Notes under the pieces: model-generated
The model's database searches: none
Seen by the model: only the letters and a program-made list of their open reading frames with translations
What the model was told of the DNA's origin: nothing
Shown: positions 34,480-62,114 of the stretch, piece after piece
Layout of the letters: each line of letters starts with the position of its first letter
Numbering within the stretch: position 1 is the stretch's first letter
Assembly (NCBI GenBank): GCA_014360805.1
Contig: JACIWU010000003.1
Location: 5,020-69,019 of the forward strand
DNA length: 64,000 nt
From: Chloroflexota bacterium
Lineage (GTDB): Bacteria > Chloroflexota > Anaerolineae > DTLA01
Reading direction: 5' to 3'
Position numbers and translations under genes: made by a program

Positions 34480-35421
34480 CTATTCGCGGCGCATCAAGTC
34501 GCGGAGATAGGGGTCGTGCTGGAGCATGAGCCGCAGGCCGGTTGCCACATCCACCTTCGGCGAGTAGCCCAACAGCGCCCGCGCCCGCGTCAAATCGGCC
34601 ACCAGCCGCGAGACGCCGCCCGTGTCGGCCTGGCTGTGCAGCGAATGCACCTCGCGCCCGATGGCAGCAGCGATGAGGTCTACCAGAGCGCGCACACTGG
34701 TCTCCTGCCCCGAACCGACGTTGATGACCTGGCGGTTGACCCCCGTCGCCTCCGAGGCGGTTACCAGCGCGTCCACCACGTCGTCTATGTACACGAAATC
34801 GCGGGTCTGCTGGCCGGTGCCGAACACGATGACAGAGCCGCCCGACAGCGCCTGCTTGAGGAAGAAGGGGATCACAGGCGCGTGGGCTGCGGGGACAAAC
34901 TGGCCCGCGCCGTAGGCGTTGAAAATCCGCAGGCTCACCGTCTCTATAGCGTACAGTTCGCCCAGGGTGTTCACGTACAGTTCCGACGCCAATTTGCTCA
35001 CGGCGTAGGGCGAGCGCGGATGGGGCCATGCGGTCTCCGACACCGGCTGCGTCTCCTGATCGCCGTACACCGCCCCCGACGAGGCGAACACCACCCGCCC
35101 CACGCCCGCATCGCGCGCCGCTTGCATCAGCGAAACCGTGCCACCCACGTTCACGTCGTTGTACTCGCGGGGATAGAGGACAGACTCGGGCACAGACACG
35201 CGGGCCGCCAGGTGGTACACGCAGGAGATGCCCTGGAGCAGCGTCCAGAGTTTGGGCACATCGCGCACGTCGCCACGGGTGAACACCACGCGGCGGTCCA
35301 GCCGCGACGGGTCACCCGCGCTCAAGTCGTCCAGCACGCGCACGTGGTGCCCTTCGGCCACCAGCCGATTCGCCAACGCCGCGCCGATGAACCCGGCGCC
35401 GCCCGTGATCAGAACCCGCAT
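34480..35421 (-). CDS. NAD-dependent epimerase/dehydratase (UDP-hexose 4-epimerase-like SDR)
   Basis: It has the Rossmann motif MRVLITGGAGFIG and the catalytic YAVSK triad. Confidence 0.85.
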   Translation of the reverse strand: MRVLITGGAGFIGAALANRLVAEGHHVRVLDDLSAGDPSRLDRRVVFTRGDVRDVPKLWTLLQGISCVYHLAARVSVPESVLYPREYNDVNVGGTVSLMQAARDAGVGRVVFASSGAVYGDQETQPVSETAWPHPRSPYAVSKLASELYVNTLGELYAIETVSLRIFNAYGAGQFVPAAHAPVIPFFLKQALSGGSVIVFGTGQQTRDFVYIDDVVDALVTASEATGVNRQVINVGSGQETSVRALVDLIAAAIGREVHSLHSQADTGGVSRLVADLTRARALLGYSPKVDVATGLRLMLQHDPYLRDLMRRE

Positions 35422-35443
35422 ACCGTCCTCGTCCTGCTTTACT

Positions 35444-36223
35444 TCAGTGTGTGCGCCGACGCCATTCTGTCTTTAGGTCCAGTTGGGTCAGGTCCTCGCC
35501 GATTTCCAGGAAGTCGGCCAGCAGGCGGTTGAAACGGCCGACCTCATCCAGCATCGGGAAGTGCTTGGACTCGGTCATGGTGAGCACCCGCACCCGTGGG
35601 TTGTTGGCCGCTATGGCGGTGGCCTGGGCCGGATCCACCAGCCCGTCCTTGCGCCCGTACACGAGGAGCGTCGGCATCGGCAACTGGCGCAGCAAGGGAC
35701 GGATGTCAAAGCCCTTCAGGTTGGCCAGACTCTCCTCAACCGCGTTGGGCGCGATGCGGGCGATGTCCTGCCACACGATATTGTGGGGGATCTGCCGCTT
35801 CTGCTGGAACTTGCCGATGGCCGACTTGCCGAGGATGGCGCCGGTGTTGAGGCCCGCATCGGTGAGGGGCGTGCTCACCAGCGCCAGGCGCGGCGCGCGG
35901 TCCGGGTGTTTGGCCGCGAAGTGCACGGCCAGGATGCCCCCCAGGCTGTGGGCCACCAGCGGAGCCTTGAGGATACCCATCTGATCCATGAAGGCTTCCA
36001 GCAGGCGCAGGTAGGAATCCATGTCGTGGCGGCCGCCCTGCTTGTCCGAATCCCCGTACCCCCACAGGTCAAAGGCGTGCGTGCGGTAATTCTCGGAGAG
36101 CGCCTCCATGGCATGCATCCAGTAGCGCCACGAACCGAGCCAGCCGTGAAGGAAGATCAGCGGCTTGCCTCGCCCCAGCGTTTCGTAGTGGATGATTCGC
36201 TCCTCAATGAGGATGACGCTCAT
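35444..36223 (-). CDS. Alpha/beta-fold hydrolase
   Basis: The N-terminus reads IHYETLGRGKPLIFLHGWLGSWRYW and the nucleophile elbow is HSLGG. It is a paralog of the hydrolase at 49702..50490. Confidence 0.75.
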   Translation of the reverse strand: MSVILIEERIIHYETLGRGKPLIFLHGWLGSWRYWMHAMEALSENYRTHAFDLWGYGDSDKQGGRHDMDSYLRLLEAFMDQMGILKAPLVAHSLGGILAVHFAAKHPDRAPRLALVSTPLTDAGLNTGAILGKSAIGKFQQKRQIPHNIVWQDIARIAPNAVEESLANLKGFDIRPLLRQLPMPTLLVYGRKDGLVDPAQATAIAANNPRVRVLTMTESKHFPMLDEVGRFNRLLADFLEIGEDLTQLDLKTEWRRRTH

Positions 36224-36247
36224 CGCCGCTCCCTGGCCGCCCGCGCC

Positions 36248-36634
36248 TCATTTCCCTTTGGCGGCCGCCAGCACATTCCGCAGCCGACCGGGCAACTCTT
36301 CCGGCGAGAACGGCTTCAGGATATAGTCCGCCGCCCCCAACGAAAGCCCCTGCTTGATGTCGGCCTCCTGCCCGCGCGCGGAAAGAAACACCACTGGAAT
36401 GCCCTTCGTCTTCGGGTTCGCCTTCAGCGCCTGGCACGCCTGGTGCCCCGTCATGCGCGGCATCCGCACGTCCATCAGCACCAGGTCGGGCATCACCGCC
36501 AGCGTCTGTTGCACGGCCTCTTCTCCGTTGTTCGCGGTTACGACCTCAAACCCGTTGAGTTCCAGGATGAACCGAAGGAGTTCCAGGATATCGCGCTCGT
36601 CCTCGGCTACAACGATTTTCGGCATACCTGCCAT
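36248..36634 (-). CDS. Single-domain response regulator receiver (CheY-like)
   Basis: It reads KIVVAEDERDIL...DLVLMDVRMPRMTG...KPF. The start is at MAGMPK or MPK. Confidence 0.8.
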   Translation of the reverse strand: MAGMPKIVVAEDERDILELLRFILELNGFEVVTANNGEEAVQQTLAVMPDLVLMDVRMPRMTGHQACQALKANPKTKGIPVVFLSARGQEADIKQGLSLGAADYILKPFSPEELPGRLRNVLAAAKGK

Positions 36635-36650
36635 CCAATACGCAATGGGT

Positions 36651-39600
36651 TTACTCGGCGCGGTCCTCGGTCGCGCCGCGGGCCGACTCCGCCTCACCGT
36701 TCGGCCTGGACCGAGATTCCAGCGTCTTGCGCACTTCCTCCACCAGGTCTGGGATGGAGAAGGGCTTGGTCATGAAGTTCACGGCGCCCAGGGCCAACGC
36801 CCGCTCGCGCTTCATCTTGTCTTCAGAGATACTGGCCGTCATCACGATCACCGGGATGTCGGCGGTGTTCGGATTCCGCTTCAGTTGCTCCAGCACCGAG
36901 TAGCCGTCCAGCCCGGGCATCTTGAGGTCCAGCAGGATGAGGCCGGGGCGCTCCTTTTCGGCCACGGCCAGCACCTGGCGGCCGTCGGACACGGCCCGCG
37001 CCACGAACCCGTTGCGCTCCAGCACCTCGCGCAGCAGTTTCTGCGTGTCCTCGTTATCATCGCAGATGAGCACCAGGTCGTGGGCGAACAGGATGGAGTG
37101 AACCGTGCTGACGAGCCGCTTCTCGTCCACCGGCTTGCCCAGGTAGTCCACCGCCCCCAAGCGGTAGGCCCGGTCGGGGTCGGGGACGATGGACAGAATC
37201 ACCACGGGGATGTCCGTGGTCTCGGGGTTGGACTTCAGGTCGCTGAGCACCTCAAACCCGTCCTTGCCCGGCAGGCGAACGTCCAGCGTGATGAGGTGCG
37301 GTCTCTCGCGCAGGACGAGGTCCATCACCTCGTCGCCCCGCCCGCAAGTGCTCACCTCGTACCCTTCCTCGCGCAGATGCGTGGCCACCAGGTTCGCGAT
37401 GTCGGGCTCGTCTTCCACCACGAGAATCCGCTTGCCCGCGCCAATGGGCTCGGCTTCTTCCGTAACCTCTTCCCGCGGCGGGAGCGGCTGGTCAAACACG
37501 GCGATGGGCATCGTGAAACTGAACTTGGACCCCTTGCCCAGTTCGCTCTTGAGCCAGATGGTGCCGCCGTGCATCTCCACGAACGACTTGACGATGGCCA
37601 GGCCCAGGCCGGTGCCGCCCGTCTCCTGCACCACCGGATGGTCGGCGCGATAGAAGCGGTCAAAGACCTTCTTCTGGTCCTCGGGCGAGATGCCGATGCC
37701 GGTGTCGGCCACGTCTATCTGCACCTTGTCCGACACGCGGCGCGCCGAGACGGTGATCTTGCCGCCCGCGGGCGTGTAGCGGCACGCGTTGTCCACTAGG
37801 TTGGTCAGAATCTGCGTCAGGCGGTCGCGGTCGGCGTACACCGGCGGCAAGGGCGATTTGACCTTGATGGTAACCGTGAGTTGCTTCTCCTCGGCTTGCT
37901 TGCGCAGCGCGGTTACCACGTCCTGGATGACCTTGGCGGCGTCGGTGGGCTGGCGGTCCAAGCGGATGCGTCCGGTCTCAATCCGCGAGATGTCCAGCAG
38001 GTCGTTGACCAGCGTCGCCAGTCGGTCGGCGTTGGACTTGATGACGGTCAGGAACTTGCGCTGGGCATCCGTAATAGGGCCTGCCGCTTGCATGAACAGG
38101 AGGTCGGTGTAGCCCTTGATGGAAGTCATGGGCGTGCGCAATTCGTGGGACACGGTGGAGATGAATTCGTTCTTGACGCGCTCCGCCTCCACTTCCTTGG
38201 AGATGTCGCGGAACAGCGCCACGGTTCCCAGCAATTCGTCGCCCATCATCACCGGCGCCACGCGCACGCTGGCCACCTTGTTGCCCACGGCGAAACGCTC
38301 TTCCATCTGTGGCCGCTGGCGGGACGCGACGCCGACCCAGCGGCTCACGGCGGCCAGCCCGCGGGCGGCCATCTCGGCCCCCGCCGAAAGCGTGGCCGGC
38401 AGGGCATGCACGTTCTCGTTCATCACCACGTTGCGCGGCACGCCCAGGATGCGCTCGGCGGCGTCGTTGAACAGGATGATGCGCCCGTCGGTGTCGGTAA
38501 CCACCACGCCGTCGGCGATGCCTTCCAGAATGGCGCGGGTCTTGGATGCCTCGGTCTGCTGCATCCGCAGCATGTCGCCCAGGCGGTCCGCCTGCTCCTG
38601 GATGAGGCGATACAGTTCGGCGTTGCCGATGGCCGTGGCGATCTGGGTGGCGGCGGCGGTTACCATCTTCAGGTGGGCCTCGCTGAAATAGTCGGGCCTG
38701 GGGTCGGCCAGCGTCAGCACGCCGAGGATGTCCTCGCCCGCCTGGAGCGGCACCGACAGCGCCGAGCGCACCGTCTCTTCGCCCACCGTGGTCAGCCAGC
38801 GCTTGTCCTTGGTTACGTCGGGCACGATGACCGCCTGGCGGTGCTGGAGCACCCATCCGGCCAGCCCAACCCCCGCGCTGAAGGACCGCGACAGCGACGC
38901 GGCCTGGTCCGCCTGGCCCCGCGTCAGCGAGGCGCGGTGCACCAGTTTGCCCGTCGCCTGATCCAGCAGCAGGATGGACCCCTGCCGCATGCCGATGGAC
39001 TCCTTCAGGAGTTGCAGGGCGCGGCTCATCACGCGGTTCAGGTCCAGCGTCTGGCTCAATTCGCGGGCGATGCGGTACAGCGCCTCGGTGCGGTCGCGCT
39101 CAATCGTGAGTTCCTCGTTGGCCTTCGCCAGTTCGCGCGTGCGCTGCTCCACGCGCTCTTCCAGTTCCAGGTTCAGCCGCGTGATCTCTTGGTACAACTG
39201 GGCGTTGCGGATGGCGCGCGAGGCCTGGTTCACCAGGAAGTTCACGAGCGACACTTCCCGATCGGTGAAGTGATGGGGTTCGGTGGAGCCTGCGAACAGC
39301 ACGCCGATGGTTTGTCCTTCCAGTTGCACCGGCACGCCGAGCATGGACTGCACGCCCAGTTTGCGAATCACCGAACTGACGCGGCTATCCTGCGCTACCT
39401 CGTCTATGACGAGCGGCTTGCCCGATCGCAGGATCTCGGCGGTCAACCCGCGCGCCCTGGGCTTGTGCACCTCAATCTGCTGCGCCATCTCCGGCGGGTC
39501 CGACACGACCTTGAAGACCAGTTCATCCTCGGTCTGGCCCTTGATGTACAGCGTAGCAAGTTGCGTGTGGGTCAGCCGCAGCGCGCTCTGGGCGATGAGC

Positions 39601-42600
39601 GTCAGCACGCGATCCAGTTCCAGAGTCTCGCTGAGGGCCACGCCCAGGTCGTACAGCAGGCGCATCTCCTCGGCGCTCTGGCGCGTCTCCTGGAACAGGC
39701 GCGCGTTCTGCACAGCCGTGGCCACCTGCGCGGCGATGGTTTGCAGCACGTTCAGGTCCTCTTCGGTGTAGGCGCGCGGCTTGATGTAACTCTGCACGGC
39801 GATCACGCCGATGACCTTCTCGCCGACGATCATCGGCACGCCCATCCACGACAGCGCGGGCCTGCCCACGGGCGGGTTGCCCAGGATTTCGGTCGCCGCC
39901 TCCACCACGTTCTCGGGCAGGAACAGCGGCTGTCGCGTGCGGATGATGTGCTCGGTCAGGCTCCGCGTGCCGCGTCGGCTGGCCCAGGTTACGCGCTCGC
40001 CCTCCTCAACCGCCAGCGGGAACGACACCTCATCGTTCTCCTCGTCGTACAGGGCGATGTAGAAGTTGGATGCGTCAATGACCTGGCCAATCTGCCTATA
40101 CGCCTCCTCCAACAGCGCCGGCAGGTCCAGGGTGGAACTGATGGTCTGGCCCATGCGGTTGAGCGCGGCCAGCGAACGAATCCGCCGCTCCGATTCCTCA
40201 AACAGGCGTGCGTTCTCAATGGCCACGGCCAACTGGTCGCCAAGCGTCTGGAGGAGGAACAGGTCGTCGTCGCCGAAAGCGTCCAACTCGTGGCTCTGCA
40301 CGTCCAGCACACCGATGACGCGGTCGCCGATGACCAGGGGCACGGTGCATTCCGACCGCGTGTCGGCCAGGAGCGGATGCGGCACGTAGTAGGGGTCCTT
40401 GGTAACGTCGTTGGCGATGAGCGGCTGGCGGGTGCTGGCGGCGTGGCCGATCATCCCTTCCTGGCCCACCTTCAGCCGCAGCCCTTCTTCGCGTATGGCG
40501 CGCCCCACGGAGCCGTTGCCCGCGCGGTACACGGCCTCTTGCGTGTCGGGGTCAATGAGGAACACGTGCACGTGGTCGTAGTTGAACGTCTCGTGCACCA
40601 GTTCCACCACCTCGGTGAGCAGTTCGTCCAGGCCCAGGATGGAAGCGATGCGGCGGCCCACCTCGCTGGTGGCCTCCAACTGCGTGGCGCGCCTGCGCGT
40701 CTCCTCGTACAGGCGACTGTTCTCAATGGCCACGGCGGTCTGCGCGGCCACCGCCGATAGGATGCGCAAATCCCGCTCGCCGAAGGCATCCAACTGGCTG
40801 CTCTGCGCGTCCAGGACGCCGATGAGCCGATTGCCCACCATCATGGGCACGGCGATCTCCGAACGGGTCTGCGAGTCCTTCTGGATGTAGCGGGAATCCT
40901 GGGTAACGTCGGGCACCACCAGCGGCTGCTTGTTCTCGGCGACCCATCCGGTGATGCCTTCCCGTCCCACCTGGATGCGCAGCCCGCGAACGTCTTCCAT
41001 GTACCCCACGGCGGCGCGCACCACCAGGTCGTCGGTAACCGGGTCCAGGAGCAGGAACGCGCAGTTGTCGTACCCCGCCGACTGCCGGAGCGCGCTCAAC
41101 ACGTCTTCCAGCATCTCTTCGGGGTCCAGCGTGGAGACCAGCCCTCGGCTCACGTCGTACATGGCCGAAATCTCGCGCATGCGCGAGATGACGTTTTCGT
41201 ACAGCATCGCGTTCTCAATGCCGATGGCCGCCTGGTTGGCAAACACCTCCAGCGCCGCGATGTCTTCCGGCTCGGGTCGGCGGCGGCTGATGGGGTCGTC
41301 CAGCGACAGGTAGCCGATGTGCCCCTTACTGCCGGTCAGCGGGACGATGAGGGCGTCGGTGGGCTGCCACTCCTCCGGCTCGCGCGGCCCCAGGTCGGGC
41401 ACGTACACCGGCGCGCCGCTCCCCTCCAGCGTGCCCTTGCCGTCGCCGGTGATGAGATAGGACTGGCTGATGCGATAGCGTTCGTCCAGCAGGCTTTCCA
41501 GCGCGGCGCGCGGGAAGGGCGCCGCCGACACGGGCGCACCGTCGCCGACGCCCGCCGTGGCCACCACGCGCACCAGGGTGGGGTCTTCGCCGTCAATCAG
41601 GTTCAGCGCCACAAGGCGATACCCCATCTGCTTGTGCGCGGCCTCGGTGATCTCGCGGCAAACCTGCTCCAGGCTCATCTCGGCCTTGAGGGCATTGCCG
41701 AAGTTGAGCAGGTTGCTCAGTTGCTCTGCGCGGCGCGCCATCAATCGGCTCTGGGCCAACTGCTTCTCGTACAGTTGCGCGTTCTCAATGGCGATGGCCG
41801 CCTGGTTGGCGAAAATCTCCAGCGCCTCCACGACCGCGCGGGTGGGCACCCGCCCGTCGCGAGGCTCATCCACGCTCAGCAGCCCCAGAATCTCGCCGGA
41901 CGAGGAATGCAGCGGGACGATGAGCATGTCTTCGGGATGCCACCGCCCCTGTTCCCACTCTTCGTCCTCCGGCGCCGGCGGCGTGTACACGTGAAGCCCT
42001 TCCTGCCATTCGTGCGCCTTCTGGTGCGGGAAGAAGTAGGACTGGCTGATGCGGTACTCGTCGCGCATGATGCGGGTGAACCGCTCCAGCGGCTGCCGCA
42101 CGCGCCGCATCTCCTCAAAGACGGCGAGGGGCAACCCCGCCGCCGCAACGCGCCGCAGGTACGGCGGGTCGCCCTCCACGACGCTGAGCAGCGCCAGGTT
42201 GAACCCTGTCGTTTCGGGAATGGCGTACACGATCTGATCCAGCACCTCTTCCAGCGAGAGGTTCATGCGCAGGGCGTTGCCGATTTCCAGCAGGCTGCGC
42301 AACTGCTCGGCGCGACGGCTCAGGCTGCTCCCCAGCCGCACCTGCTCCTGATACCGCCAGGCGTTGCCGATGGCCACGCCCGCCTGGTTGGCCAGCGCCT
42401 CCAGGAACTTGACCGTTTCCTCGTCAAACGCCTGCGCTTCCATGGCGCGCAGGCTGATGACGCCCGCGACCGCCCCCTCGTACAGGATGGGCACCGCCAC
42501 GGCCGACAGCGTGCCCTTGCGGATGCAGACCGGGCGCGTCTCCTTGCGTGCGTCGGCCACGATGATGGACTTCGCCGAGCGTATGGCGTCTTCGGCAACG

Positions 42601-45428
42601 CTGTTCCCGTCGCCCAGGGTCATCCCTTTGAGGATTGCCTCCTCTTCTTCGGAGTACCCCTTGTAGGCAACGACGTGGAACTTGCCGCTCTCCACGTCCA
42701 GCAAGGCGATGTTCCCGTGGGACGCGCGGGTGGCGCGAATCGCCTCGGTGATGACGACCTCCAGGATGCGCTCCAACTCCAGCGTGGCGTTGAGTTCCCG
42801 CGTGATGCGCTGGAGGGCCGTCATCTGGTCCACCTGATGTCGCAGTTGCTCGTCGGTGCGCTGGTACAGCCGCAGGTTCTGGATGCCGGTGGCCAGTTGC
42901 GCGGCGATGGTCGCAAGAAGCCGCTCATCCTCGGCGGAAAAGGCGCCGTCGCGCTTGTTCCCCGCATGGAGTTCGCCCAGCACCACGTCCTGCGTCCGCA
43001 ACGGCACCGACAGCACCGTGCGGAATCCGTACTTGTGGATGAGCGGGCGATAGGCGGGGATGATGCGTTTGTCGTTTGGCGCGTCCGACGACCGGAACGG
43101 GCGTCCCGTGCGGAACACGCCATAGGCGAATTCGGGAAATGTCGCGTCAATGGACAGGGTTTCGGCCTCTTCGGGCGGCAGCCCCACAACGCCGCTGGCG
43201 CGAGCCTCCAGCCGCTCCGTGGTCTCGTTGTACATGAGCAGCGCCATCTTCTCGGCCTTGAGCAGGTCGGCCGCCTTGTGCAGCGTCTGCTGGAGCATCT
43301 GCTCCAGGTCCAGCGTGGAGGTAACGATGCCGGCGATTTGGAACAGGCCGGCCATCTCGTCCACCCTGGCCTGCATCTCTTCGTACAGGCGGGCGTTCTC
43401 AATGGCGACGGCGGCCTGGCCTGCAATCGCCTGCAGGAGGCGCAGGTCTTGCTGCGAGAAGGCGTTGGGGCGCTCCGCCGCCATCTCCAGTGTCCCCACC
43501 AGTTTTGGCCCCTTCATCAGCGGCACGCCCATATAGGAGCGGAAGGGGATTTGCTCCGAATCCAGGCGAGGCCGAACATCGGTGCGCGCCTGCACGTCGG
43601 GGATGAACAGCGGCTTCTGGTTGCGGGTGATCCAGCCGGTGTATCCCTGCTCGGGGGTATAGGTGGCGCCAACCTGGGTCAGGTAGCCGGGTTCGCCTGC
43701 CGCCGCCCACGTAACCATGACACCCTGGTCCTCGTCCCACAGGTTCACTTCGGCCACGTAGTAGTCCAGCAGGCGGCGCGCGCTTTCCAAAATGGTCTGG
43801 AGCGTGGCTTCCAAATCCAGGCTGCCCGAAATGGCCTGGCCCACCTCGTTCAGCAGCGAAATCTCCTGGAAGCGGCGGAGTTCCTGATCGTAGAGGCGCG
43901 CATTCCGCACCGCAACCGCCGCCTGGTTGGCCAGGTTCTCCACAAACGCCAGGTTGTCGGTCGTAAACGCGGCAGGGCGGTTGCTCTCCAGGTTCAGCAC
44001 GCCCAGCACCTGGTTCTCGTAGCGGATGGGCACGGTCAACTGCGAGCGTGTGTCGGGCAGGGCCGGCACGTAGTCGGGGTCCTTGGCTACATCGGGGACG
44101 AGGGCGGGCCTGCCGGTGCGCACCACGCGCATGGTGATGCCACCAGGAGACGGGCGCTGCATGTCCCCTTCGGGCGTGATGAGCGTGGGGTAGTTCCGCT
44201 GCGCCAGGAGTTCCAACCTATCCGTTTCGGGGTCGTACAGGCCCGCCAGCGCCGAGGTCGCGCCCGTGGCCTGGATGGCGCGGCCGATGAGCAAGTCCAA
44301 CACGCGGTGCAAATCCAGCGTGCTGGCCAGTTCGCGCGTGATCTCGCTCATCGCGCCCAGTTCTTCCACGCGCCGCGCCAGCGTCCGGTCGGTGGCCGCG
44401 TACAGTTGCGCGTTGGCCAGCGCCAGCGCCGCCTGGTCGGCAATGGCCTCCAGAAAGTGAACGTCGGCTTCGGTGAACGCCTGGGGCGTCCGCGCCTCCA
44501 GGTTCAGCACGCCCACCACGACGTTGCCCATGCGAATGGGCACCGCGACCTCGGAGCGGGTCTCGGGCACGAGCGCAAAGTAGTCCGCGTCCTGCGACAC
44601 GTCGGCGATCAGCGCCGGCTGCCCCGTCTCGCGCACGCGCCCCACGATGGTCTTCGTGGCCTCAAAATCCAGCGTCTTGTAGGCCATGATCTGGTCGGGC
44701 GTGTAGCCATACGCCTCGCGCAGCGCCAACTTCCCCGTGTTCTCGTCTACCAGGAGCAAGGCCCCGTGGGTCGCGGGCGTGGCGGCCACGGTCTCCTCCA
44801 CGATCATGGGCAGGAGTTTGTCCAGTTCCAGGGTGCTGCTGAGTTGGCGGCTGATGCGCTGCAGGGCGGTCAGTTCGTTCACGCGCCGGCGCGACTGGGC
44901 GAGAATCTCCTGGCTCTCCAGTTGCGCAGCGCGGTCCTGCTCCTCTGATCGCACCAGGTAGCGGACGATGTACCCCAGCGCGTAGTAACTGAACAGGCCG
45001 GTGATCAGGAAGGACCAGCGGATCGGCTCGCCCGCGGGCCAGAGCGGCGGCACGAGGGGCAGCAGGAACGCCACGGCCACGCCCGCGATGAAGGCCGCCA
45101 GCGCCCCGATAGGCAGCCATGCGGCTCCCAGCCCGACCAGGAAGTACGCCAGGATGGAGGCGGGGCTTGTGCGTCCGCCCGTCAGGTAGAAGACCGCAAT
45201 GGAAAATGGCACCTCAACGGCGAGAAGCCCGAGGAGGGCATGACGTTCGCGGAACGCGCGAAGTGCGCGGATGCGAAGCGCCAACAGTTGCGCGGCGAGC
45301 AGCCCCAGAACCCAGAATCCAACCCGGCCCTGATTGGCCAGGGAGGAAATCAGCGCGTACAGCCAGCCGAACCAGTACAGCCAGACAACGACTTGCTGCG
45401 CTCTCAGTCTTCCTCTGGAAATGTTCAT
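36651..45428 (-). CDS. Giant (about 2925 aa) hybrid sensor histidine kinase: N-terminal TM region, about 12 tandem GAF domains, PAS, HisKA, HATPase_c and two receiver domains
   Basis: The GAF-like block L..LL.D recurs about 12 times, for example HGALLLVDENTGKL, HGNIALLDVESGKF and QGSILLLDQATGKL. The H-box is FISTVSHELRTPMTSIKGY. The ATP lid is GTGLGLAIVKSF. The two receivers read RILVVEDEPDIA and LVLICDDNEDTQ. Confidence 0.9.
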   Translation of the reverse strand: MNISRGRLRAQQVVVWLYWFGWLYALISSLANQGRVGFWVLGLLAAQLLALRIRALRAFRERHALLGLLAVEVPFSIAVFYLTGGRTSPASILAYFLVGLGAAWLPIGALAAFIAGVAVAFLLPLVPPLWPAGEPIRWSFLITGLFSYYALGYIVRYLVRSEEQDRAAQLESQEILAQSRRRVNELTALQRISRQLSSTLELDKLLPMIVEETVAATPATHGALLLVDENTGKLALREAYGYTPDQIMAYKTLDFEATKTIVGRVRETGQPALIADVSQDADYFALVPETRSEVAVPIRMGNVVVGVLNLEARTPQAFTEADVHFLEAIADQAALALANAQLYAATDRTLARRVEELGAMSEITRELASTLDLHRVLDLLIGRAIQATGATSALAGLYDPETDRLELLAQRNYPTLITPEGDMQRPSPGGITMRVVRTGRPALVPDVAKDPDYVPALPDTRSQLTVPIRYENQVLGVLNLESNRPAAFTTDNLAFVENLANQAAVAVRNARLYDQELRRFQEISLLNEVGQAISGSLDLEATLQTILESARRLLDYYVAEVNLWDEDQGVMVTWAAAGEPGYLTQVGATYTPEQGYTGWITRNQKPLFIPDVQARTDVRPRLDSEQIPFRSYMGVPLMKGPKLVGTLEMAAERPNAFSQQDLRLLQAIAGQAAVAIENARLYEEMQARVDEMAGLFQIAGIVTSTLDLEQMLQQTLHKAADLLKAEKMALLMYNETTERLEARASGVVGLPPEEAETLSIDATFPEFAYGVFRTGRPFRSSDAPNDKRIIPAYRPLIHKYGFRTVLSVPLRTQDVVLGELHAGNKRDGAFSAEDERLLATIAAQLATGIQNLRLYQRTDEQLRHQVDQMTALQRITRELNATLELERILEVVITEAIRATRASHGNIALLDVESGKFHVVAYKGYSEEEEAILKGMTLGDGNSVAEDAIRSAKSIIVADARKETRPVCIRKGTLSAVAVPILYEGAVAGVISLRAMEAQAFDEETVKFLEALANQAGVAIGNAWRYQEQVRLGSSLSRRAEQLRSLLEIGNALRMNLSLEEVLDQIVYAIPETTGFNLALLSVVEGDPPYLRRVAAAGLPLAVFEEMRRVRQPLERFTRIMRDEYRISQSYFFPHQKAHEWQEGLHVYTPPAPEDEEWEQGRWHPEDMLIVPLHSSSGEILGLLSVDEPRDGRVPTRAVVEALEIFANQAAIAIENAQLYEKQLAQSRLMARRAEQLSNLLNFGNALKAEMSLEQVCREITEAAHKQMGYRLVALNLIDGEDPTLVRVVATAGVGDGAPVSAAPFPRAALESLLDERYRISQSYLITGDGKGTLEGSGAPVYVPDLGPREPEEWQPTDALIVPLTGSKGHIGYLSLDDPISRRRPEPEDIAALEVFANQAAIGIENAMLYENVISRMREISAMYDVSRGLVSTLDPEEMLEDVLSALRQSAGYDNCAFLLLDPVTDDLVVRAAVGYMEDVRGLRIQVGREGITGWVAENKQPLVVPDVTQDSRYIQKDSQTRSEIAVPMMVGNRLIGVLDAQSSQLDAFGERDLRILSAVAAQTAVAIENSRLYEETRRRATQLEATSEVGRRIASILGLDELLTEVVELVHETFNYDHVHVFLIDPDTQEAVYRAGNGSVGRAIREEGLRLKVGQEGMIGHAASTRQPLIANDVTKDPYYVPHPLLADTRSECTVPLVIGDRVIGVLDVQSHELDAFGDDDLFLLQTLGDQLAVAIENARLFEESERRIRSLAALNRMGQTISSTLDLPALLEEAYRQIGQVIDASNFYIALYDEENDEVSFPLAVEEGERVTWASRRGTRSLTEHIIRTRQPLFLPENVVEAATEILGNPPVGRPALSWMGVPMIVGEKVIGVIAVQSYIKPRAYTEEDLNVLQTIAAQVATAVQNARLFQETRQSAEEMRLLYDLGVALSETLELDRVLTLIAQSALRLTHTQLATLYIKGQTEDELVFKVVSDPPEMAQQIEVHKPRARGLTAEILRSGKPLVIDEVAQDSRVSSVIRKLGVQSMLGVPVQLEGQTIGVLFAGSTEPHHFTDREVSLVNFLVNQASRAIRNAQLYQEITRLNLELEERVEQRTRELAKANEELTIERDRTEALYRIARELSQTLDLNRVMSRALQLLKESIGMRQGSILLLDQATGKLVHRASLTRGQADQAASLSRSFSAGVGLAGWVLQHRQAVIVPDVTKDKRWLTTVGEETVRSALSVPLQAGEDILGVLTLADPRPDYFSEAHLKMVTAAATQIATAIGNAELYRLIQEQADRLGDMLRMQQTEASKTRAILEGIADGVVVTDTDGRIILFNDAAERILGVPRNVVMNENVHALPATLSAGAEMAARGLAAVSRWVGVASRQRPQMEERFAVGNKVASVRVAPVMMGDELLGTVALFRDISKEVEAERVKNEFISTVSHELRTPMTSIKGYTDLLFMQAAGPITDAQRKFLTVIKSNADRLATLVNDLLDISRIETGRIRLDRQPTDAAKVIQDVVTALRKQAEEKQLTVTIKVKSPLPPVYADRDRLTQILTNLVDNACRYTPAGGKITVSARRVSDKVQIDVADTGIGISPEDQKKVFDRFYRADHPVVQETGGTGLGLAIVKSFVEMHGGTIWLKSELGKGSKFSFTMPIAVFDQPLPPREEVTEEAEPIGAGKRILVVEDEPDIANLVATHLREEGYEVSTCGRGDEVMDLVLRERPHLITLDVRLPGKDGFEVLSDLKSNPETTDIPVVILSIVPDPDRAYRLGAVDYLGKPVDEKRLVSTVHSILFAHDLVLICDDNEDTQKLLREVLERNGFVARAVSDGRQVLAVAEKERPGLILLDLKMPGLDGYSVLEQLKRNPNTADIPVIVMTASISEDKMKRERALALGAVNFMTKPFSIPDLVEEVRKTLESRSRPNGEAESARGATEDRAE

Positions 45429-45457
45429 ACCCACCAACCCACGCAGATTCCGGGACG

Positions 45458-46369
45458 CTAGCCGATCTCGCCGGACTGGGCGATGGCGGCGGCGCGGCGC
45501 GCATCCGAGGCCACCTCGGTGATCTCGCGGATGTCGCTGAAACGTCCAGCCCCGCCGTGCACCGTCCCCACGGCCAGCGTCATGAGCGAGACCTTCTTCT
45601 CTCGCCCTGTCTCATCTTTCACCAGAAGGTAGCCGCGTTCGCGGTCTTTGAAGTTGTAGAAACTCTTGACCTCGCTGTTGAAGCGCGTGGTGATCCGTTC
45701 GCGCAGCGCGGCCTCGCGGTCGGGCGTGGTGATGATGATGAAGTCGCCCCCGCCGATGTGGCCGACGAAATCCTGGCCGCCTTCCAGCGCGTCAATCGTC
45801 TCGCCCAGCACCATGGCCGCAAAGCGCAGCACATCGTCGGCCGCAACGAACCCGTACAGGTCGTTGAACGCGCGCAGCCCGCACACGCCGATATACAGCA
45901 CCGTCCAGTTGTCGCGCTGGATGAGGGCCTTCAGTTGCTCCTCTATCAGCCGCCCGCTGGGGAGGCCCGTAACCGGGTTCGTGAGGTTCTCGTAACTGGC
46001 CCTGCGCAGGGCGTTCTTGACCCGCAGATGCAGTTCTTCCATGTCAAAGGGCTTGGTGATGTAGTCGTCGGCGCCCAACTGGAGGCCGGCGATGCGGTCG
46101 GCCCGCTCATCCTTCTGCGTGAGGAAGATGATGGGAATGTGGCTGGTGCGCAGGTTGGTGCGCAAGCGGCGGCACACCTCGTAGCCGTCAATGTCCGGAA
46201 GTTTGATATCCAAGATGACCAGATTGGGCAGTTTGCGCCGAGAAATCTCCAGGGCCTCGTTCCCGTGCGTGGTAACAAGGACATCGTATCCCTGCGATTC
46301 AAAATAGAAGGCGAGCAGACTGGAGATGTCCCGGTCGTCCTCTACGATCAGAATCCTGTCCTTTGGCAT
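45458..46369 (-). CDS. Response regulator with a REC plus GGDEF-like domain whose signature motif is degenerate (GGGDF)
   Basis: The REC domain reads RILIVEDDRDIS...DIKLPDIDG. The GGDEF-fold region reads NPVTGLPSGRL...DFVGHIGGGDFIII. I placed the start at MPKDRIL after a GGAGGA ribosome-binding site. Confidence 0.85.
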   Translation of the reverse strand: MPKDRILIVEDDRDISSLLAFYFESQGYDVLVTTHGNEALEISRRKLPNLVILDIKLPDIDGYEVCRRLRTNLRTSHIPIIFLTQKDERADRIAGLQLGADDYITKPFDMEELHLRVKNALRRASYENLTNPVTGLPSGRLIEEQLKALIQRDNWTVLYIGVCGLRAFNDLYGFVAADDVLRFAAMVLGETIDALEGGQDFVGHIGGGDFIIITTPDREAALRERITTRFNSEVKSFYNFKDRERGYLLVKDETGREKKVSLMTLAVGTVHGGAGRFSDIREITEVASDARRAAAIAQSGEIG

Positions 46370-46417
46370 GTCTATCCTCCATAACACCTTAGGCTACAAG
46401 CGCACCTGCCTGTTCTA

Positions 46418-47470
46418 TTATACCACTCCTGCGCAAGATGACACGTCCACGGCCCGACCTCCGGCGCGAAGCGGAGCCGCGCGGAAGCCGTGCCGCTCGG
46501 CGATGGTGCAAATCACAGCCACCCGTTCGGGGGCGATGGCGCGCCCCAGCGTGAAACTCTCGTAGCGGCCCTCCAGCGCGAGCGCGATGGTCTCGGCCAT
46601 GCAGGCATACGCATGTTCAGGCGGCAGGCCGAAGTCAAACCGGAACTCCGGCTGTCCCGGCACGATTACATCGCCGCCCGCGTACACAGTGACTTTCAGC
46701 CGCAGCGCGTGCACCGCCGCCGACACATCCGGCGGCAGCGCCAGGTCGTAGACCGCCGCGCCCGGGCGCAAATGCTCCGGACGAATCAGCGGCCCCGCCG
46801 AATTCGTGGCGCTGATGACGATATCCGCCTCCCGCAGCGCCAACAAGTCCGTCGCGCCCGACACCGTGCCAGGCGCCGCCCACTCCAATTCGGCCGCCAG
46901 CCGACTCACGGCCCCGGCGTCGCGCCCCACGATGCCCAGGTGCCCCACCTTGCCGGCGAGCAGGCGTGCGCATGCGCTGCCGATGGACCCCGTCCCGCCG
47001 AGCACGGCCACGTGCAACTCCTCCAGCGGCCTGCCCAGAGCGCGGGCGATGGTTCGCACGGCGCTGCACGTAACCGCCACCGTGTAACTGTTGCCCGTCG
47101 TAACGGGCACGCTCAGCCCTCGCTCAACCGTCTTGCCGGCATCGCCCACCGCCGAGGTCAGCGCGCCCAGCCCCACGATGCGCGCGCCCAGGCGTTCGGC
47201 CAGCCGCCCCGCGCGGATGATCTGGCGATACACGCGCCGCAGCGGGAACCGCGTCATCGCCCGCGGCGTGAGCGGACAGGCCACAAGCCACCCCTCGGCC
47301 TCTACACCCAGTGCAGAGCGAATGCCAGTAACGTGCGAAAGGTACACCGGCGGGAAGTACCCCGACAGGAAGTCCAGCCACCCCAGCGGCAGTCGGCTCA
47401 GGATAGCGAACCGCTTCGCCACATCCCTCCGCACGTCCAAAGGGTGCAGGATGAACCCGAAACGCTCCAT
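46418..47470 (-). CDS. Acyl-ACP reductase (AAR)-like NAD(P)-dependent reductase
   Basis: I placed the start at MERFGFILHP. The motifs GLGALTSAVG, TTGNSYTAVAV and VLGGTGSIGSACARLL parallel the cyanobacterial AAR motifs FGLIGH, LGGFTSI, TTGNTHTAY and VVGATGDIGSAV. I am recalling the AAR motifs from memory, so this is not an alignment. Confidence 0.6.
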   Translation of the reverse strand: MERFGFILHPLDVRRDVAKRFAILSRLPLGWLDFLSGYFPPVYLSHVTGIRSALGVEAEGWLVACPLTPRAMTRFPLRRVYRQIIRAGRLAERLGARIVGLGALTSAVGDAGKTVERGLSVPVTTGNSYTVAVTCSAVRTIARALGRPLEELHVAVLGGTGSIGSACARLLAGKVGHLGIVGRDAGAVSRLAAELEWAAPGTVSGATDLLALREADIVISATNSAGPLIRPEHLRPGAAVYDLALPPDVSAAVHALRLKVTVYAGGDVIVPGQPEFRFDFGLPPEHAYACMAETIALALEGRYESFTLGRAIAPERVAVICTIAERHGFRAAPLRAGGRAVDVSSCAGVV

Positions 47471-47471
47471 C

Positions 47472-48722
47472 TCAATCCCTCGTGTACTTCTGAGGGTGCA
47501 GGCGCTCCTCACCCAGCCGCACGTGATCGCTCTCCTCAAACAGCACGTTGTCGGAGATGACGCCGCGGCCCTCGGCGCGGATGAGCACCGTGTCCGACTC
47601 AATGGTGCGTGCGGGGTAGATGACCATGCCCGCGCCGATTCGGCAGTTGTGCCCGACGCACCCGCCCAGAACGGGCAAGCCCACGGGTTGCGGCTGGCCT
47701 TTGTGCATGGTGCGCAGCGGCTTGCCCAGCAGGTTGAAATCCGTGAAGACCGTATTCGCCCCCACAAACGAGTGCCGCCCGACGACGCACAATTGCAGCG
47801 TGGCGTTCTGGGCCACCATGGAGTTCTCCATGAGTGTGGTCATGAACAGGGCGGCGCGGAACGGCAGGTAGCACCCATCGCTGACAACGCTGAGCATCAC
47901 CTGGCAGCCCTGCATCACGTTGACGTTGCTGCCGATGATGGAGTTGGTTACCACAGCCCCCGGGCCGATGGTGGTGTTGTCGCCGATGATGGCCGGCCCC
48001 TGGATGATGGCCGTCGGGTCAATCTGCACATTGCGCCCCACGCGGATCATCCGGGACGACGACAGGAACTGCCGCCGCTCCAGCAGCGAGCGCATCAGCA
48101 CCCGCGCCGCCTTGGAGAACCGCGTAACCTCGTGTTCCATCTTCGCCCCCATGCTGAAGATTCCGAAGGGCGAATTGGCCATGAACACGTGTACCCAATT
48201 CTCTATCGCCAGGAACGGTCGCAGGGGGACCCAGAAGACCAGTTCCCCCTTCTCCGAGGCCATGTACGTCGGGATGTGGTAATAGCCGATTTCTCGCGCC
48301 ATGGTGTCCACGACCACGGGCTCCGCCGGCTCGTCGGTAGGGCCGTTGGGGTAGTACCACAGGTCCGCCACGTACACGTCGCCCTGGCGGCGGATGTTGT
48401 CCTGCAGGGGCAGGGCGTGGACGACGATGGCCTTGTCGTCGGGGGAGAAGGCCACCTGGCAGGGCTTGCGGCGCGCCTTGGCCAGGCGCAGGAACTCCTG
48501 GATGAAGTCCTCGTCAAAGAAGAGGTTGTCGCGGTACACGATGCATTCTTCGCGGATGGGCGGCAGCGGGTCTCCGCTTTCCACCTCCACCTCCGTGAGG
48601 CAATGCCGGGCCAGAACGTCGCGCTGGTGCAACCACAGGGGTTTATTGAGCACGCGCAGGTCTCGCGCAGGCTCGTTGAAGGGGGGTATCTTGGTGCGAT
48701 CGCGGATGACGATTCGTATCAT
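47472..48722 (-). CDS. Left-handed beta-helix (hexapeptide-repeat) domain protein with an unknown N-terminal domain
   Basis: The C-terminal half carries imperfect hexapeptide repeats, for example IGDNTTIGPGAVVTNSIIGSNVNV. The stop overlaps the downstream start in a TGAGATG arrangement. Confidence 0.5.
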   Translation of the reverse strand: MIRIVIRDRTKIPPFNEPARDLRVLNKPLWLHQRDVLARHCLTEVEVESGDPLPPIREECIVYRDNLFFDEDFIQEFLRLAKARRKPCQVAFSPDDKAIVVHALPLQDNIRRQGDVYVADLWYYPNGPTDEPAEPVVVDTMAREIGYYHIPTYMASEKGELVFWVPLRPFLAIENWVHVFMANSPFGIFSMGAKMEHEVTRFSKAARVLMRSLLERRQFLSSSRMIRVGRNVQIDPTAIIQGPAIIGDNTTIGPGAVVTNSIIGSNVNVMQGCQVMLSVVSDGCYLPFRAALFMTTLMENSMVAQNATLQLCVVGRHSFVGANTVFTDFNLLGKPLRTMHKGQPQPVGLPVLGGCVGHNCRIGAGMVIYPARTIESDTVLIRAEGRGVISDNVLFEESDHVRLGEERLHPQKYTRD

Positions 48723-48928
48723 GGCCCTCTGGCACCCTCCAGATCGCCCACCGTCTTGCGCGCTCCTCCCCGCGCTTTCGGGCGAGGCGCGGACAACCCT
48801 TGGCCGACCGGCGGGCTGGGGGGTACCGCGCCCGGCCTGGGACTCGTTTTGCCGAGAACCGTCCGGAACCGCCGCATCAGCGTCCGACTCCGGCGCGTGC
48901 GTCTGGGTCTATCCGTGTCCTCCCCCGT

Positions 48929-49650
48929 CTAGTCCAACGGCTTCTTGTCAATCACGAAACAGCACGTGGGGTCGCCCTTGGCAATGCAGGTTGTCTCCAC
49001 AACCGACATGTTCTTGCCGCCGGTTACCCACGCCAGGCTCTCTTGCAACAGGCCGAGGGCGACGTAGCAGATGGGCGTCTGCGACTTCCGGCCCCAGCAC
49101 ACCGGACAGCGAACGATGTGATAGTAGAAGTGCTCGTTGTCCTCTTCCAGGCGCACAACCTGGTCGCTGGAGCGGTTGAAGGTCTCGGCCATAACGCCCA
49201 GGCCCAGCCGCAGTTTCATGCCCAGCGGCATCAGGCGCATGGCCAGGTCGCTGATGCCCAGCATCGCGCCGTACTCCTTGAGCACATACTTGAACGTGGC
49301 GCGGCCGCCGCGCGTGCCCAGCCCTCGCCCGCCGCGCGGCCCGTACACGTCATCCAGCGCCTGATTCAGCGCCGCAAAGTCCTCAAACGGGAACTCGCGC
49401 TCAAAGTTGTTGGGCGGGTAGTTGTTGATGAGGTGCTTCAGTTTCGCCAGGTTGAGCAGCGCGTTCACGCCATTCTTGCCCAGCACGTCCTCAAGCGCCA
49501 GCAAGTAGATGCGCGCCATCTTGTTGCCGTAGTAGTACCGAGGCACGCCCTCCTCGCCGTGCGCGTGTTCATGCTCCTCGTGCTGTTCCTCTTGAGCGGG
49601 CTGCTCTACCACATTGTGCTGCTCTTCGTGGGTGTCTTTCTGCTCGTCCA
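48929..49650 (-). CDS. V4R (4-vinyl reductase) domain protein with a His/Glu-rich N-terminus
   Basis: I placed the start at MDEQ after a GGAGGA ribosome-binding site. The N-terminus reads EEQHNVVEQPAQEEQHEEHEHAHGEEG. The C-terminal V4R signature is HIVRCPVCWG...CYVALGLLQESL...CIAKGDPTCCFVI. The upstream part of the 493-aa track ORF is an antisense artefact. Confidence 0.6.
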
Positions 49651-49701
49651 TGAGTCCTCCAAGAGAATTCATAAAACCTCGGATGGAGCCGTATGCGCCC
49701 G

Positions 49702-50490
49702 TCAATGCGACGCCAGAAACTGCCTTAACCGGCCGTTGAACTGGTCCGGATCGTCCAGCATCGGAAAGTGCCCGCAGTGCTCCAGCACCGCCAGGTCGGC
49801 CCTCGGAGCGCCGCGAAGCAGCACGCCCCCCTGCCGCGGATCCACGATGAGGTCGCGCTGCCCGTAGAACCCCAGCACGGGCACCTGAACCTCGCCGAGG
49901 CGGGGCGTCAAGTCCGTTCGGCGCAACGAGCGGATGCTCGTCAGGAACGCCTCCAACGTGGTGCGCGACAGGTCGTTCATGATCATGTCGTACCACTTGC
50001 GCCAGTCGTGCGCCAGCCGCGGCGAGAACGTGCGAAGCCCCCACCGCAACAACGCCGGCACGTGCCACACCAGGTACGCCACCGGCTTGCGCCCCGCCAG
50101 CCGCAGTGGCAGACTCAACGAGCGGCCGTTGACGGGCGACCCGACCACGGCCACCTTCGTAACCCGTTCGGGGCGCTCCATGGCCAACTTCAGCGCCACG
50201 GTCCCGCCCATAGAATGTCCCACCACGGGAGCCGCCGGAATCCCCAGCCGATCCATGAACTGGTCCACCAGGCTCACGAAGTCGTCCACTTCGTAGCCGC
50301 TGCGCGGCTTCCCCGACTCGCCAAAACCCCAAAAGTCTAGCGCGTAGGTACGGAAGGCGTCGGACAGGGCCTCCATCGTGTTCAGCCAATACCCCCAGGA
50401 GCCGAGCCACCCATGCAGCAAGACGACCGGCGGGCCGCTGCCCTGGGTCTCATAATGCACGATGCCTTGACGTGTTACGATGGAACCCAA
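49702..50490 (-). CDS. Alpha/beta-fold hydrolase, paralog of 35444..36223
   Basis: The N-terminus reads IVHYETQGSGPPVVLLHGWLGSWGYW and the nucleophile elbow is HSMGG. Confidence 0.75.
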   Translation of the reverse strand: MGSIVTRQGIVHYETQGSGPPVVLLHGWLGSWGYWLNTMEALSDAFRTYALDFWGFGESGKPRSGYEVDDFVSLVDQFMDRLGIPAAPVVGHSMGGTVALKLAMERPERVTKVAVVGSPVNGRSLSLPLRLAGRKPVAYLVWHVPALLRWGLRTFSPRLAHDWRKWYDMIMNDLSRTTLEAFLTSIRSLRRTDLTPRLGEVQVPVLGFYGQRDLIVDPRQGGVLLRGAPRADLAVLEHCGHFPMLDDPDQFNGRLRQFLASH

Positions 50491-50505
50491 CCCGTTGGCC
50501 CCTCG

Positions 50506-51042: not shown

Positions 51043-51059
51043 TCCGCAGTTCCTCCGAG

Positions 51060-51869: not shown

Positions 51870-51933
51870 CTTCTCTCACCTTGTCTGCTTTTGCAAATGG
51901 ACGAAATGCAAAGATGACTCCAATTGTATGTTG

Positions 51934-51962
51934 ATTATAACCCTAGTCTCATTTTCCGTCAA
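51934..51962 (-). promoter_or_regulatory. Consensus promoter (TTGACG-17-TATAAT) for the PATAN-GTPase cluster, followed by a TTGCA-N11-TGCAA inverted repeat in the 5' UTR
   Basis: The minus strand reads ttgacggaaaatgagactagggttataat. This AT-rich island is about 65 nt upstream of the start at 51869. The UTR contains ttgcatttcgtccatttgcaa. Confidence 0.5.
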
Positions 51963-61136: not shown

Positions 61137-61156
61137 AGTCCTTACCTCAATTCGCG

Positions 61157-62113: not shown

Positions 62114-62114
62114 C

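Follow-up and report, generated by a model that had tools for sequence, protein, structure and literature searches.

The window analysed here is a stretch of 64,000 nt from a Chloroflexota bacterium of the Anaerolineae type (GenBank assembly GCA_014360805.1, contig JACIWU010000003.1, positions 5,020 to 69,019 of the forward strand), with a G+C content of ∼65%. Positions below are those of the window. On its minus strand, a block of eleven genes (34480-51962) contains one very large gene, which encodes a sensor histidine kinase with twelve GAF domains in series between a membrane module and the kinase core. The open reading frame (ORF) spans 36651-45437, counts 2928 codons from a TTG and is translated without interruption. 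Because the orthologs begin with MNISRG, the start is placed at the ATG at 45428, which gives a protein of 2925 amino acids. The gene and its parts are as follows.

36651-45428, minus strand: poly-GAF hybrid histidine kinase gene, 2925 aa from the ATG; the ORF reaches a TTG at 45437
44943-45428, minus strand: N-terminal membrane module with six transmembrane (TM) helices (hydropathy and AlphaFold2, AF2)
44388-44888, minus strand: GAF1, aa 184-350 (Pfam and a model of the protein's own units)
43878-44375, minus strand: GAF2, aa 355-520; arose with GAF1 by lineage duplication (42% identity)
43371-43877, minus strand: GAF3, aa 521-689; generic multi-copy type
42852-43370, minus strand: GAF4, aa 690-862; the sole unit with a complete NK..F...DE signature (N827, K828)
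42339-42839, minus strand: GAF5, aa 867-1033 (own-unit model)
41757-42317, minus strand: GAF6, aa 1041-1227; enlarged lid insert and WHPxDM motif, the best-conserved unit type family-wide
41187-41735, minus strand: GAF7, aa 1235-1417; copy of GAF6 (44% identity) present in this ortholog group only
40695-41186, minus strand: GAF8, aa 1418-1581 (own-unit model, AF2)
40188-40694, minus strand: GAF9, aa 1582-1750; lowest ratio of nonsynonymous to synonymous substitution rates (dN/dS 0.02-0.04)
39681-40187, minus strand: GAF10, aa 1751-1919 (own-unit model, AF2)
39180-39680, minus strand: GAF11, aa 1920-2086; least constrained unit, dN/dS ∼0.2
39099-39179, minus strand: long GAF11-GAF12 connector with an S-helix-like ERT signature (ERVEQRTRELAKANEEL)
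38598-39098, minus strand: GAF12, aa 2114-2280; terminal unit type, which closes the array throughout the family
38178-38543, minus strand: PAS domain, aa 2299-2420 (Pfam)
37971-38174, minus strand: HisKA/DHp domain with His2431 (Pfam and motif)
37503-37832, minus strand: HATPase_c catalytic domain with N, G1 and G2 boxes (Pfam)
37092-37433, minus strand: receiver domain 1, Asp2719 and Lys2768 (Pfam)
36732-37073, minus strand: receiver domain 2, Asp2837 and Lys2891 (Pfam)

Pfam finds twelve stretches above the gathering score with each of three GAF models (PF01590, PF13185 and PF13492; GAF_2 E-value 7e-213), followed by one PAS, one HisKA (aa 2422-2489; E 2e-19), one HATPase_c (aa 2536-2645; E 5e-33) and two stretches of Response_reg (E 2e-50). 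A hidden Markov model (HMM) trained on the units of the protein itself places twelve GAFs end to end over aa 184-2280, the sole gap being a 27-residue helical insert ahead of GAF12. The H-box reads SHELRTP and carries the phospho-acceptor His2431 (codon 38145-38147); the N, G1 and G2 boxes read NLVDNACRY, DTGIGI and GTGLGLAIV. Both fused receivers have the acidic pocket, the phospho-Asp, the Thr/Ser and the Lys. By its H-box, Bergerat-fold boxes and fused receivers, the predicted protein is a HisKA-type hybrid sensor histidine kinase. Every NCBIfam equivalog match of the kinase lies under its cut-off, the best being PnpS (311/400) and TorS (289/676). A model that had read the bare DNA (the original prediction) proposed a single ORF of about 2925 aa at 36651-45428 with a polytopic N-terminal region, some twelve consecutive GAFs and then PAS, HisKA, HATPase and two receivers. 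Gene limits, number and order of domains are all borne out, the GAF count being exactly twelve by Pfam and by the own-unit HMM, and the two motifs it quoted for HisKA and HATPase (HELRTPMTSIKGY and GTGLGLAIVKSF) are both found in the translation.

A repetitive layout of this kind is prone to mis-assembly, and the close relatives are all metagenome assemblies, so that an artificial giant ORF, fused or expanded from repeats by a sequencing or assembly error, has to be considered. The twelve GAFs share only 18-44% protein identity in pairwise comparison, and the longest internal DNA repeats are 27-167 nt at 60-87% identity, with no long near-identical repeats. Collapse or expansion of repeats is implausible for units so dissimilar and repeats so short and divergent. 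Eight ortholog clusters in independent assemblies from separate projects (ENA, NCBI, JGI and Logan) encode proteins of 2920-2957 aa at 98, 93, 92, 91, 78, 75, 74 and 73% identity, with twelve GAFs in all of them. In their alignment the units match one-to-one; indels are of 1-2 aa and occur in loops, none in the junctions. Codon-level comparison with three orthologs indicates purifying selection across the whole gene (dN/dS 0.09) and in every domain (0.02-0.21). GAF2, GAF6, GAF8 and GAF9 are as constrained as the PAS domain and the kinase core, and GAF11 and GAF12 are the least constrained units. On these combined grounds, low unit identity, short DNA repeats, independent orthologs and purifying selection, an artefact is rejected; the chance of one is negligible, and the ORF stands as continuous.

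The nearest genomic loci are metagenome-assembled genomes (MAGs) labelled Chloroflexota, Anaerolineae, Anaerolineales or Caldilineae, and the orthologs carry no other NCBI label than ‘GAF domain-containing protein’. Beyond the orthologs there are hundreds of relatives of 1,700-3,900 aa at 25-43% identity. The best 120 of them have 5-17 GAF units per protein by the same own-unit HMM. When 1.84 billion representative proteins were searched with the 12-unit profile, 299,906 matched at E<1e-3. The top 150 matches, which include a protein of a Herpetosiphon MAG, carry 7-20 GAF stretches, 20 being reached, for example, by P0123 (3792 aa) and P0141 (3952 aa). Twelve GAFs are thus mid-range for the poly-GAF family, and the description of the kinase as an extreme sensor array was overstated. 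The kinase joins multi-GAF hybrid histidine kinases that are already in the databases under a generic name; a literature search found no paper on poly-GAF kinases of Chloroflexota. A protein of 3673 aa with 18 GAF stretches (WP_340333471.1, P0206) comes from an isolate of Variovorax robiniae, a cultured betaproteobacterium. Poly-GAF proteins are therefore not limited to Chloroflexota, and an experimentally tractable host for one may exist.

Assignment of all 1,327 GAF units of the family to the nearest unit of this kinase separates two classes. Near-single-copy ‘anchor’ types comprise the GAF6-type, the terminal GAF12-type, GAF5 and GAF4, and the multi-copy generic types are GAF3-, GAF10-, GAF9- and GAF8-like. 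The GAF6-type occurs about once in nearly every family protein, at a median identity of 51%, and is marked by a lid insert of ∼20 residues (YRISQSY) and by invariant GFN, RRVAxAG, WHPxDM and ISVDxPxDG motifs. It is duplicated in this ortholog group only, and GAF7 lacks the His of WHPxDM (WQP). GAF6 alone gave no sequence match in the PDB. In very distant relatives the anchor types still show 45-62% identity and keep the motifs that mark their loops and lids. The most similar pairs of units, GAF1/2, GAF6/7 and GAF8/9 (42-44%), are lineage duplications, since each pair maps to one unit in distant relatives.

The GAFs were compared with the signatures of bilin, cyclic nucleotide monophosphate (cNMP) and haem sensors, ligand marks that the original prediction had proposed to look for. 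The NKFDE signature is present in a single unit, and neither a conserved bilin Cys nor the haem His is found; no ligand is identified for any GAF by this comparison, which weighs against a working of the kinase that relies on occupied GAF pockets. The multi-GAF layout resembles that of the seven-GAF PtxD/NpF2164 (PMC5812497), and phytochromes are among the fold matches, so that a bilin-binding photoreceptor of the cyanobacteriochrome or phytochrome kind comes to mind. No Cys, however, is conserved in any column of the 12-unit alignment, and PDB cyanobacteriochromes align to the C-terminal 57 residues of the GAF profile only. The host belongs to a Chloroflexota lineage known from MAGs only, and no bilin genes were seen in the gene cassette around the kinase. 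A photoreceptor is rejected for want of the conserved Cys and is highly improbable.

A partial alternative makes GAF4 the effective sensor, with the other units accessory, in a kinase regulated by cyclic nucleotides, as in PDE/CyaB, or by haem and gas, as in DosS/DosT. GAF4 is the sole unit with the full NK..F...DE signature, which the eleven other units lack and which is kept in all nine orthologs. Its top PDB sequence matches are the haem GAF-A domains of DosT/DevS (E 3e-7), followed by GAFs of cGMP phosphodiesterases. Against this, the column of the proximal DevS His149 holds no His in any of the twelve units (the alignment being uncertain by 1-2 residues in this loop); it is Lys in GAF4, where the adjoining His varies in orthologs (Q/E/D/R). 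The NKFDE motif of PDE GAFs is structural and does not contact the ligand. In the family the full motif is found in just 11 of the 1327 units, the wider GAF4-type units usually losing the final E, and no cyclase was seen in the cassette. Control through GAF4 is consequently unlikely. Two broader candidates are discarded as well: cNMP sensing by all units, the signature being confined to GAF4, and haem sensing by GAF4, GAF6 or GAF9, where a His lies near the DevS His149 loop but is offset by 1-3 columns, that of GAF4 being non-conserved. The position of the distal DevS Tyr171 is His in GAF4 (GELHAGNK) and Tyr or His in the wider GAF4-type units.

The membrane module consists of six TM helices with very short loops (hydropathy; AF2 pLDDT 79.7, pTM 0.70). 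It has no Pfam match (single hit DUF4131 at E 0.017) and no significant fold match in the PDB (all E>1; best TM score 0.47, ImcA, 8wcn). TM6 is predicted to run on as a single 62-residue helix into GAF1. Some of the family share the module weakly, and the length of the TM6-GAF1 helix separates the two subfamilies by exactly 7 residues. An AF2 model of GAF8-10 (pLDDT 83), the units covered by fold modelling, supports the GAF fold and shows one helix of 45-46 residues per junction, the last helix of each GAF entering the next GAF unbroken. Its top Foldseek matches are tandem GAF structures, namely PDE5A (3lfv, TM score 0.62), PDE2A (3ibj), CyaB2 (1ykd) and PDE6, besides phytochromes.

The connectors are quantised in length. 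Counted between the Asn of N-A-x-L-Y and the Asp of L-D-L in the following unit, the eleven junctions of this kinase are 33, 29, 29, 33, 36, 36, 29, 29, 29, 29 and 54 residues long. Across 112 further members of the family, two heptad phases, 29+7k (844) and 33+7k (218), account for 1062 of the 1083 junctions of ≤60 aa (98%), and the hydrophobic periodicity of the connectors is 3.3-3.5 residues. The 54-residue class, with the family consensus LEQRVEERTRELA, occurs about once per protein, right ahead of the last GAF, and bears the ERT signature of S-helices. S-helices are coiled coils of ∼40 residues that lie between two signalling domains and have ERT as their central signature (PMC1592074). 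In this kinase, ERVEQRTRELAKANEEL at aa 2093-2109 was matched to that signature by eye rather than by profile. The predicted single 45-residue connector helices, the two-phase quantisation of lengths and the predicted direct passage of TM6 into GAF1 are new here. Together, connector helices, quantised lengths and TM6-GAF1 helix support fixed-register helices that join all domains from the membrane to DHp, and thereby a relay along a helical spine.

The reading favoured here, with a probability of roughly 60%, is that of a dimeric, membrane-anchored hybrid kinase in which membrane and GAF signals pass along this spine to PAS-DHp-CA and phosphoryl groups pass to the fused and adjacent receivers. 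In such a dimer, the six-helix membrane module and the twelve cytoplasmic GAFs would share one continuous helical spine, with the S-helix preceding the last GAF and PAS-DHp-CA at its end. Conformational changes could originate in the membrane module or in GAF pockets with bound ligand and would travel as helix rotation or register shift, setting the balance of kinase and phosphatase activities at His2431. Phosphoryl groups would then move to Asp2719 and Asp2837 of the fused receivers. Judged by copy number, the near-single-copy GAF4, GAF5, GAF6 and GAF12 would be the likeliest specific sensors, and the multi-copy generic GAFs may chiefly pass the signal on or adjust length and phase.

Several points weigh against this scheme. 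Dimerization and the parallel arrangement are assumed, and the tandem GAFs of CyaB2 dimerize antiparallel (PMC1592074). The pTM of the GAF8-10 model is just 0.47, so that inter-domain geometry is not established. No HPt domain is seen in the kinase or the cassette, which puts the role of the fused receivers in doubt, and the case for phosphotransfer to the neighbouring receiver proteins is adjacency alone. A helical amphipathic connector, finally, also fits a purely structural rod. In this main rival reading, the array would mainly be a scaffold with small-molecule binding in few or none of the twelve GAFs, and the membrane module would be the sole real sensor; the rod would be a rigid spacer of set length and phase that keeps the kinase core at a distance of tens of nanometres from the membrane, or a docking platform for cassette proteins. 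The strict quantisation of connectors, the predicted helix coupling TM6 directly to GAF1, the varying number of generic GAFs (5-17) between otherwise orthologous cassettes and the absence of a known ligand signature from 11 of 12 units are all in keeping with a rod. Selection argues the other way: purifying selection acts on all twelve GAFs with a strength seen in many enzymes (dN/dS 0.02-0.21), four of them (GAF2, GAF6, GAF8 and GAF9) being constrained like the kinase core, and the motifs of the anchor types are kept at 45-62% identity in very distant relatives, beyond the needs of a spacer. A mere rod is possible but rather improbable.

The kinase is encoded among ten other genes, all in the same direction, with gaps of 15-30 nt around the kinase.

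51060-51869, minus strand: PATAN (PatA_N/DUF4388) protein without receiver, first gene of the block
50506-51042, minus strand: small Ras/Arf-like (MglA-type) GTPase
49702-50490, minus strand: alpha/beta hydrolase
48929 to about 49660, minus strand: V4R-domain protein, ∼230-243 aa
47472-48722, minus strand: hexapeptide-repeat (left-handed beta-helix) protein
46418 to about 47470, minus strand: acyl-ACP-reductase/PigE-N-like NAD(P) protein (Shikimate_DH fold), start approximate
45458-46369, minus strand: receiver (REC) plus degenerate GGDEF-like protein
36248-36634, minus strand: stand-alone receiver (CheY-like) gene, which begins 16-25 nt past the kinase stop and is kept in loci L070, L071 and L074-L076
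35444-36223, minus strand: second alpha/beta hydrolase, a conserved cassette member
34480-35421, minus strand: NAD-dependent epimerase/dehydratase, which ends the block in close relatives

Relatives at 92-98% identity and orthologs at 73-78% retain the whole block. A core of V4R protein, hexapeptide protein, REC-GGDEF-like protein, kinase, stand-alone REC and alpha/beta hydrolase is kept beside kinases of 11-17 GAFs at 37, 36, 36, 32 and 28% identity. In one of these loci (L076), the genes at the V4R and REC-GGDEF positions have diverged past their Pfam models. A 27%-identity relative with N-terminal PAS domains lies in a different gene context. Two distant loci (L072 and L073) have PATAN-GTPase-Roadblock-hydrolase upstream of the core, and the window has the same order without Roadblock. 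The block is therefore a genuine conserved cassette. It had been called a 17-kb co-directional signalling island at 34480-51962, and here the block and its conserved synteny stand; ‘signalling’ does not cover the two alpha/beta hydrolases, the hexapeptide-repeat protein, the acyl-ACP-reductase-like protein and the epimerase, about half of the genes being enzymes. The GTPase cluster announced upstream is present with its small GTPase and PATAN protein, as are the stand-alone REC downstream and the REC-GGDEF gene upstream. Three response-regulator genes had been counted beside the kinase, and there are two (36248-36634 and 45458-46369). A search for a third, upstream to 62 kb, met ProRS, CoaE, ABC-F, a multihaem cytochrome and NrfD, and no REC gene.

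The GGDEF domain of the upstream regulator is not of the diguanylate cyclase type. Pfam matches it with 38 bits over positions 5-108 of 161; its active site reads GGGDF, YIG replaces the metal-binding DxD and GGQD replaces the RxxD I-site. A PleD-type diguanylate cyclase is rejected on all three counts, active site, metal Asp and I-site. The degenerate domain is conserved in relatives (L070:9050-9961, L071:9136-10047, L072:7056-7952, L073:7081-7974 and L074:7050-7973), which are kept beside poly-GAF kinases at 36-78% identity; there GGDDF or GIGSDF also occur at the site. The sequence suggests that the protein is probably a pseudo-cyclase serving as adaptor or output. By operon logic, that is adjacency, the kinase would also pass phosphoryl groups to it and to the stand-alone REC. 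No DNA-binding output is present, so that the REC outputs would be non-transcriptional and act on the co-conserved V4R, hexapeptide, hydrolase and PATAN-GTPase proteins.

It is tempting to go further and to see in the poly-GAF kinases a distinct, undescribed class built as a phase-coded coiled-coil transmission line. Signals would enter at anchor GAFs (GAF4, GAF6 and GAF12), with expandable generic GAFs as repeaters; gain or reach would be tuned by the number of GAFs (5-20) and by connector phase (29+7k versus 33+7k). A cassette of V4R, hexapeptide, REC-pseudo-GGDEF, REC and hydrolase proteins, with the kinases as its dedicated input, would control a PATAN/MglA-like GTPase module for polarity or motility in filamentous Chloroflexota. 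This is speculative and, taken as a whole, improbable. The single gene is an ordinary though very large sensor kinase, and its interest lies less in the domain count than in family-level regularities, i.e. quantised connectors, anchor versus generic GAFs and a deep cassette. With hundreds of kinases of 5-20 GAFs, two-phase connectors and a cassette conserved down to 28% kinase identity, the family is a natural test bed for how a conformational signal crosses many serial sensor domains, and for whether these are ligand integrators or rulers. The family further ties a two-component kinase of Chloroflexota to a PATAN/MglA-like GTPase module. To our knowledge, almost no signalling pathway has been studied in this phylum.

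Among known proteins, the tandem GAFs of PDE5A, PDE2A, PDE6 and CyaB2 are the best profile and fold matches (3lfv, E 1.7e-15, TM score 0.62; 3ibj; 1ykd) and share the GAF fold, the long helix between GAFs and the C-terminal N-A-x-L-Y helix motif. They differ by having two GAFs instead of twelve, a phosphodiesterase or cyclase output instead of a kinase and no membrane anchor; the cNMP-binding NKFDE signature is here confined to one of twelve units. DosS/DevS and DosT of Mycobacterium tuberculosis follow the same GAF-GAF-kinase logic (profile match E 1e-21) and provide the best PDB matches of GAF4. Unlike the present kinase they are soluble, with two GAFs and HisKA_3/NarL-type partners, and no unit here has His in the column of their haem ligand. 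PtxD (NpF2164) and other multi-GAF cyanobacteriochromes also place many GAFs in series in one signalling protein. PtxD has seven (PMC5812497), the largest number found for a studied protein in the searchable literature, but its GAFs bind bilins via a conserved Cys that is missing here, and its output is a methyl-accepting chemotaxis protein (MCP) domain rather than a kinase. The S-helix linkers of Anantharaman, Balaji and Aravind (2006, PMC1592074) share the ERT signature with the GAF11-GAF12 connector and, with the connectors of this family, lengths that differ by heptads. The other ten connectors here are of the plain inter-GAF type, which that study sets apart from S-helices, and no description of a chain of eleven inter-GAF connectors was found in the searchable literature.

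For the cassette, the nearest described analogues are the actinobacterial conservon and the MglA-PATAN GTPases of Chloroflexi. A conservon encodes the kinase CvnA, the Roadblock protein CvnB, CvnC and the GTPase CvnD, and MglA-group GTPases of groups 1 and 5 lie near PATAN (PMC4316618). The likeness consists in a sensor kinase encoded with a small MglA-like GTPase, in the Roadblock of relatives and in the PATAN neighbourhood of groups 1 and 5. In contrast to a conservon, the cassette has no CvnC/DUF742, its kinase is a poly-GAF HisKA hybrid with REC partners, and there are extra V4R, hexapeptide and hydrolase genes. Of the four-gene conservon set (HAMP kinase with LPxR tail, Roadblock, DUF742 and GTPase), the window has the GTPase only, Roadblock being found only in L072 and L073. 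There, a Roadblock/LC7 (MglB-like) gene stands between GTPase and hydrolase (L072:1228-4562 and L073:1017-4566). The window, L070 and L071 leave no space for one; in the window the gap is 15 nt (50490-50506), so that the GTPase of this lineage lacks an adjacent Roadblock partner. Downstream of the kinase, L072:16217-23440 and L073:17054-25057 hold further GAF kinases (PDZ-GAF-histidine kinase and REC-GAF-histidine kinase) or a GAF-STAS/STAS run. Evidently, additional kinase or partner-switching modules can join the cassette.

Some minor observations concern single genes. The PATAN, GTPase and V4R proteins match no NCBIfam model above its cut-off. A 493-aa ‘V4R’ ORF (48929-50410, minus strand) is an over-extension typical of high-GC DNA; its upstream part overlaps the alpha/beta-hydrolase gene 49702-50490 in another frame, and orthologs are called at 229-235 aa. 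The protein of 46418-47470 matches the PigE N-terminal reductase (E 4e-54) and long-chain acyl-ACP reductase (E 1e-23), both below the cut-offs; its gene is kept in the cassettes of most relatives and is missing from L074, L075 and L076. Upstream of the PATAN gene, a promoter-like site (TTGACG-17-TATAAT, 11/12; 51934-51962, minus strand) coincides with the island boundary of the original prediction, and a second sigma-70-like site (46417-46444, minus strand; 10/12, extended TG) lies upstream of the REC-GGDEF gene. Both are hints only, as the promoter and terminator scan gave site counts that are not above shuffled expectation. Outside the block are ProRS, on the other strand, and ComEC. Farther upstream (59589-62260, minus strand), a 515-aa multihaem c-type cytochrome (Cytochrome_C7, paired CXXCH) adjoins an NrfD-family membrane protein, a respiratory module unrelated to the kinase.

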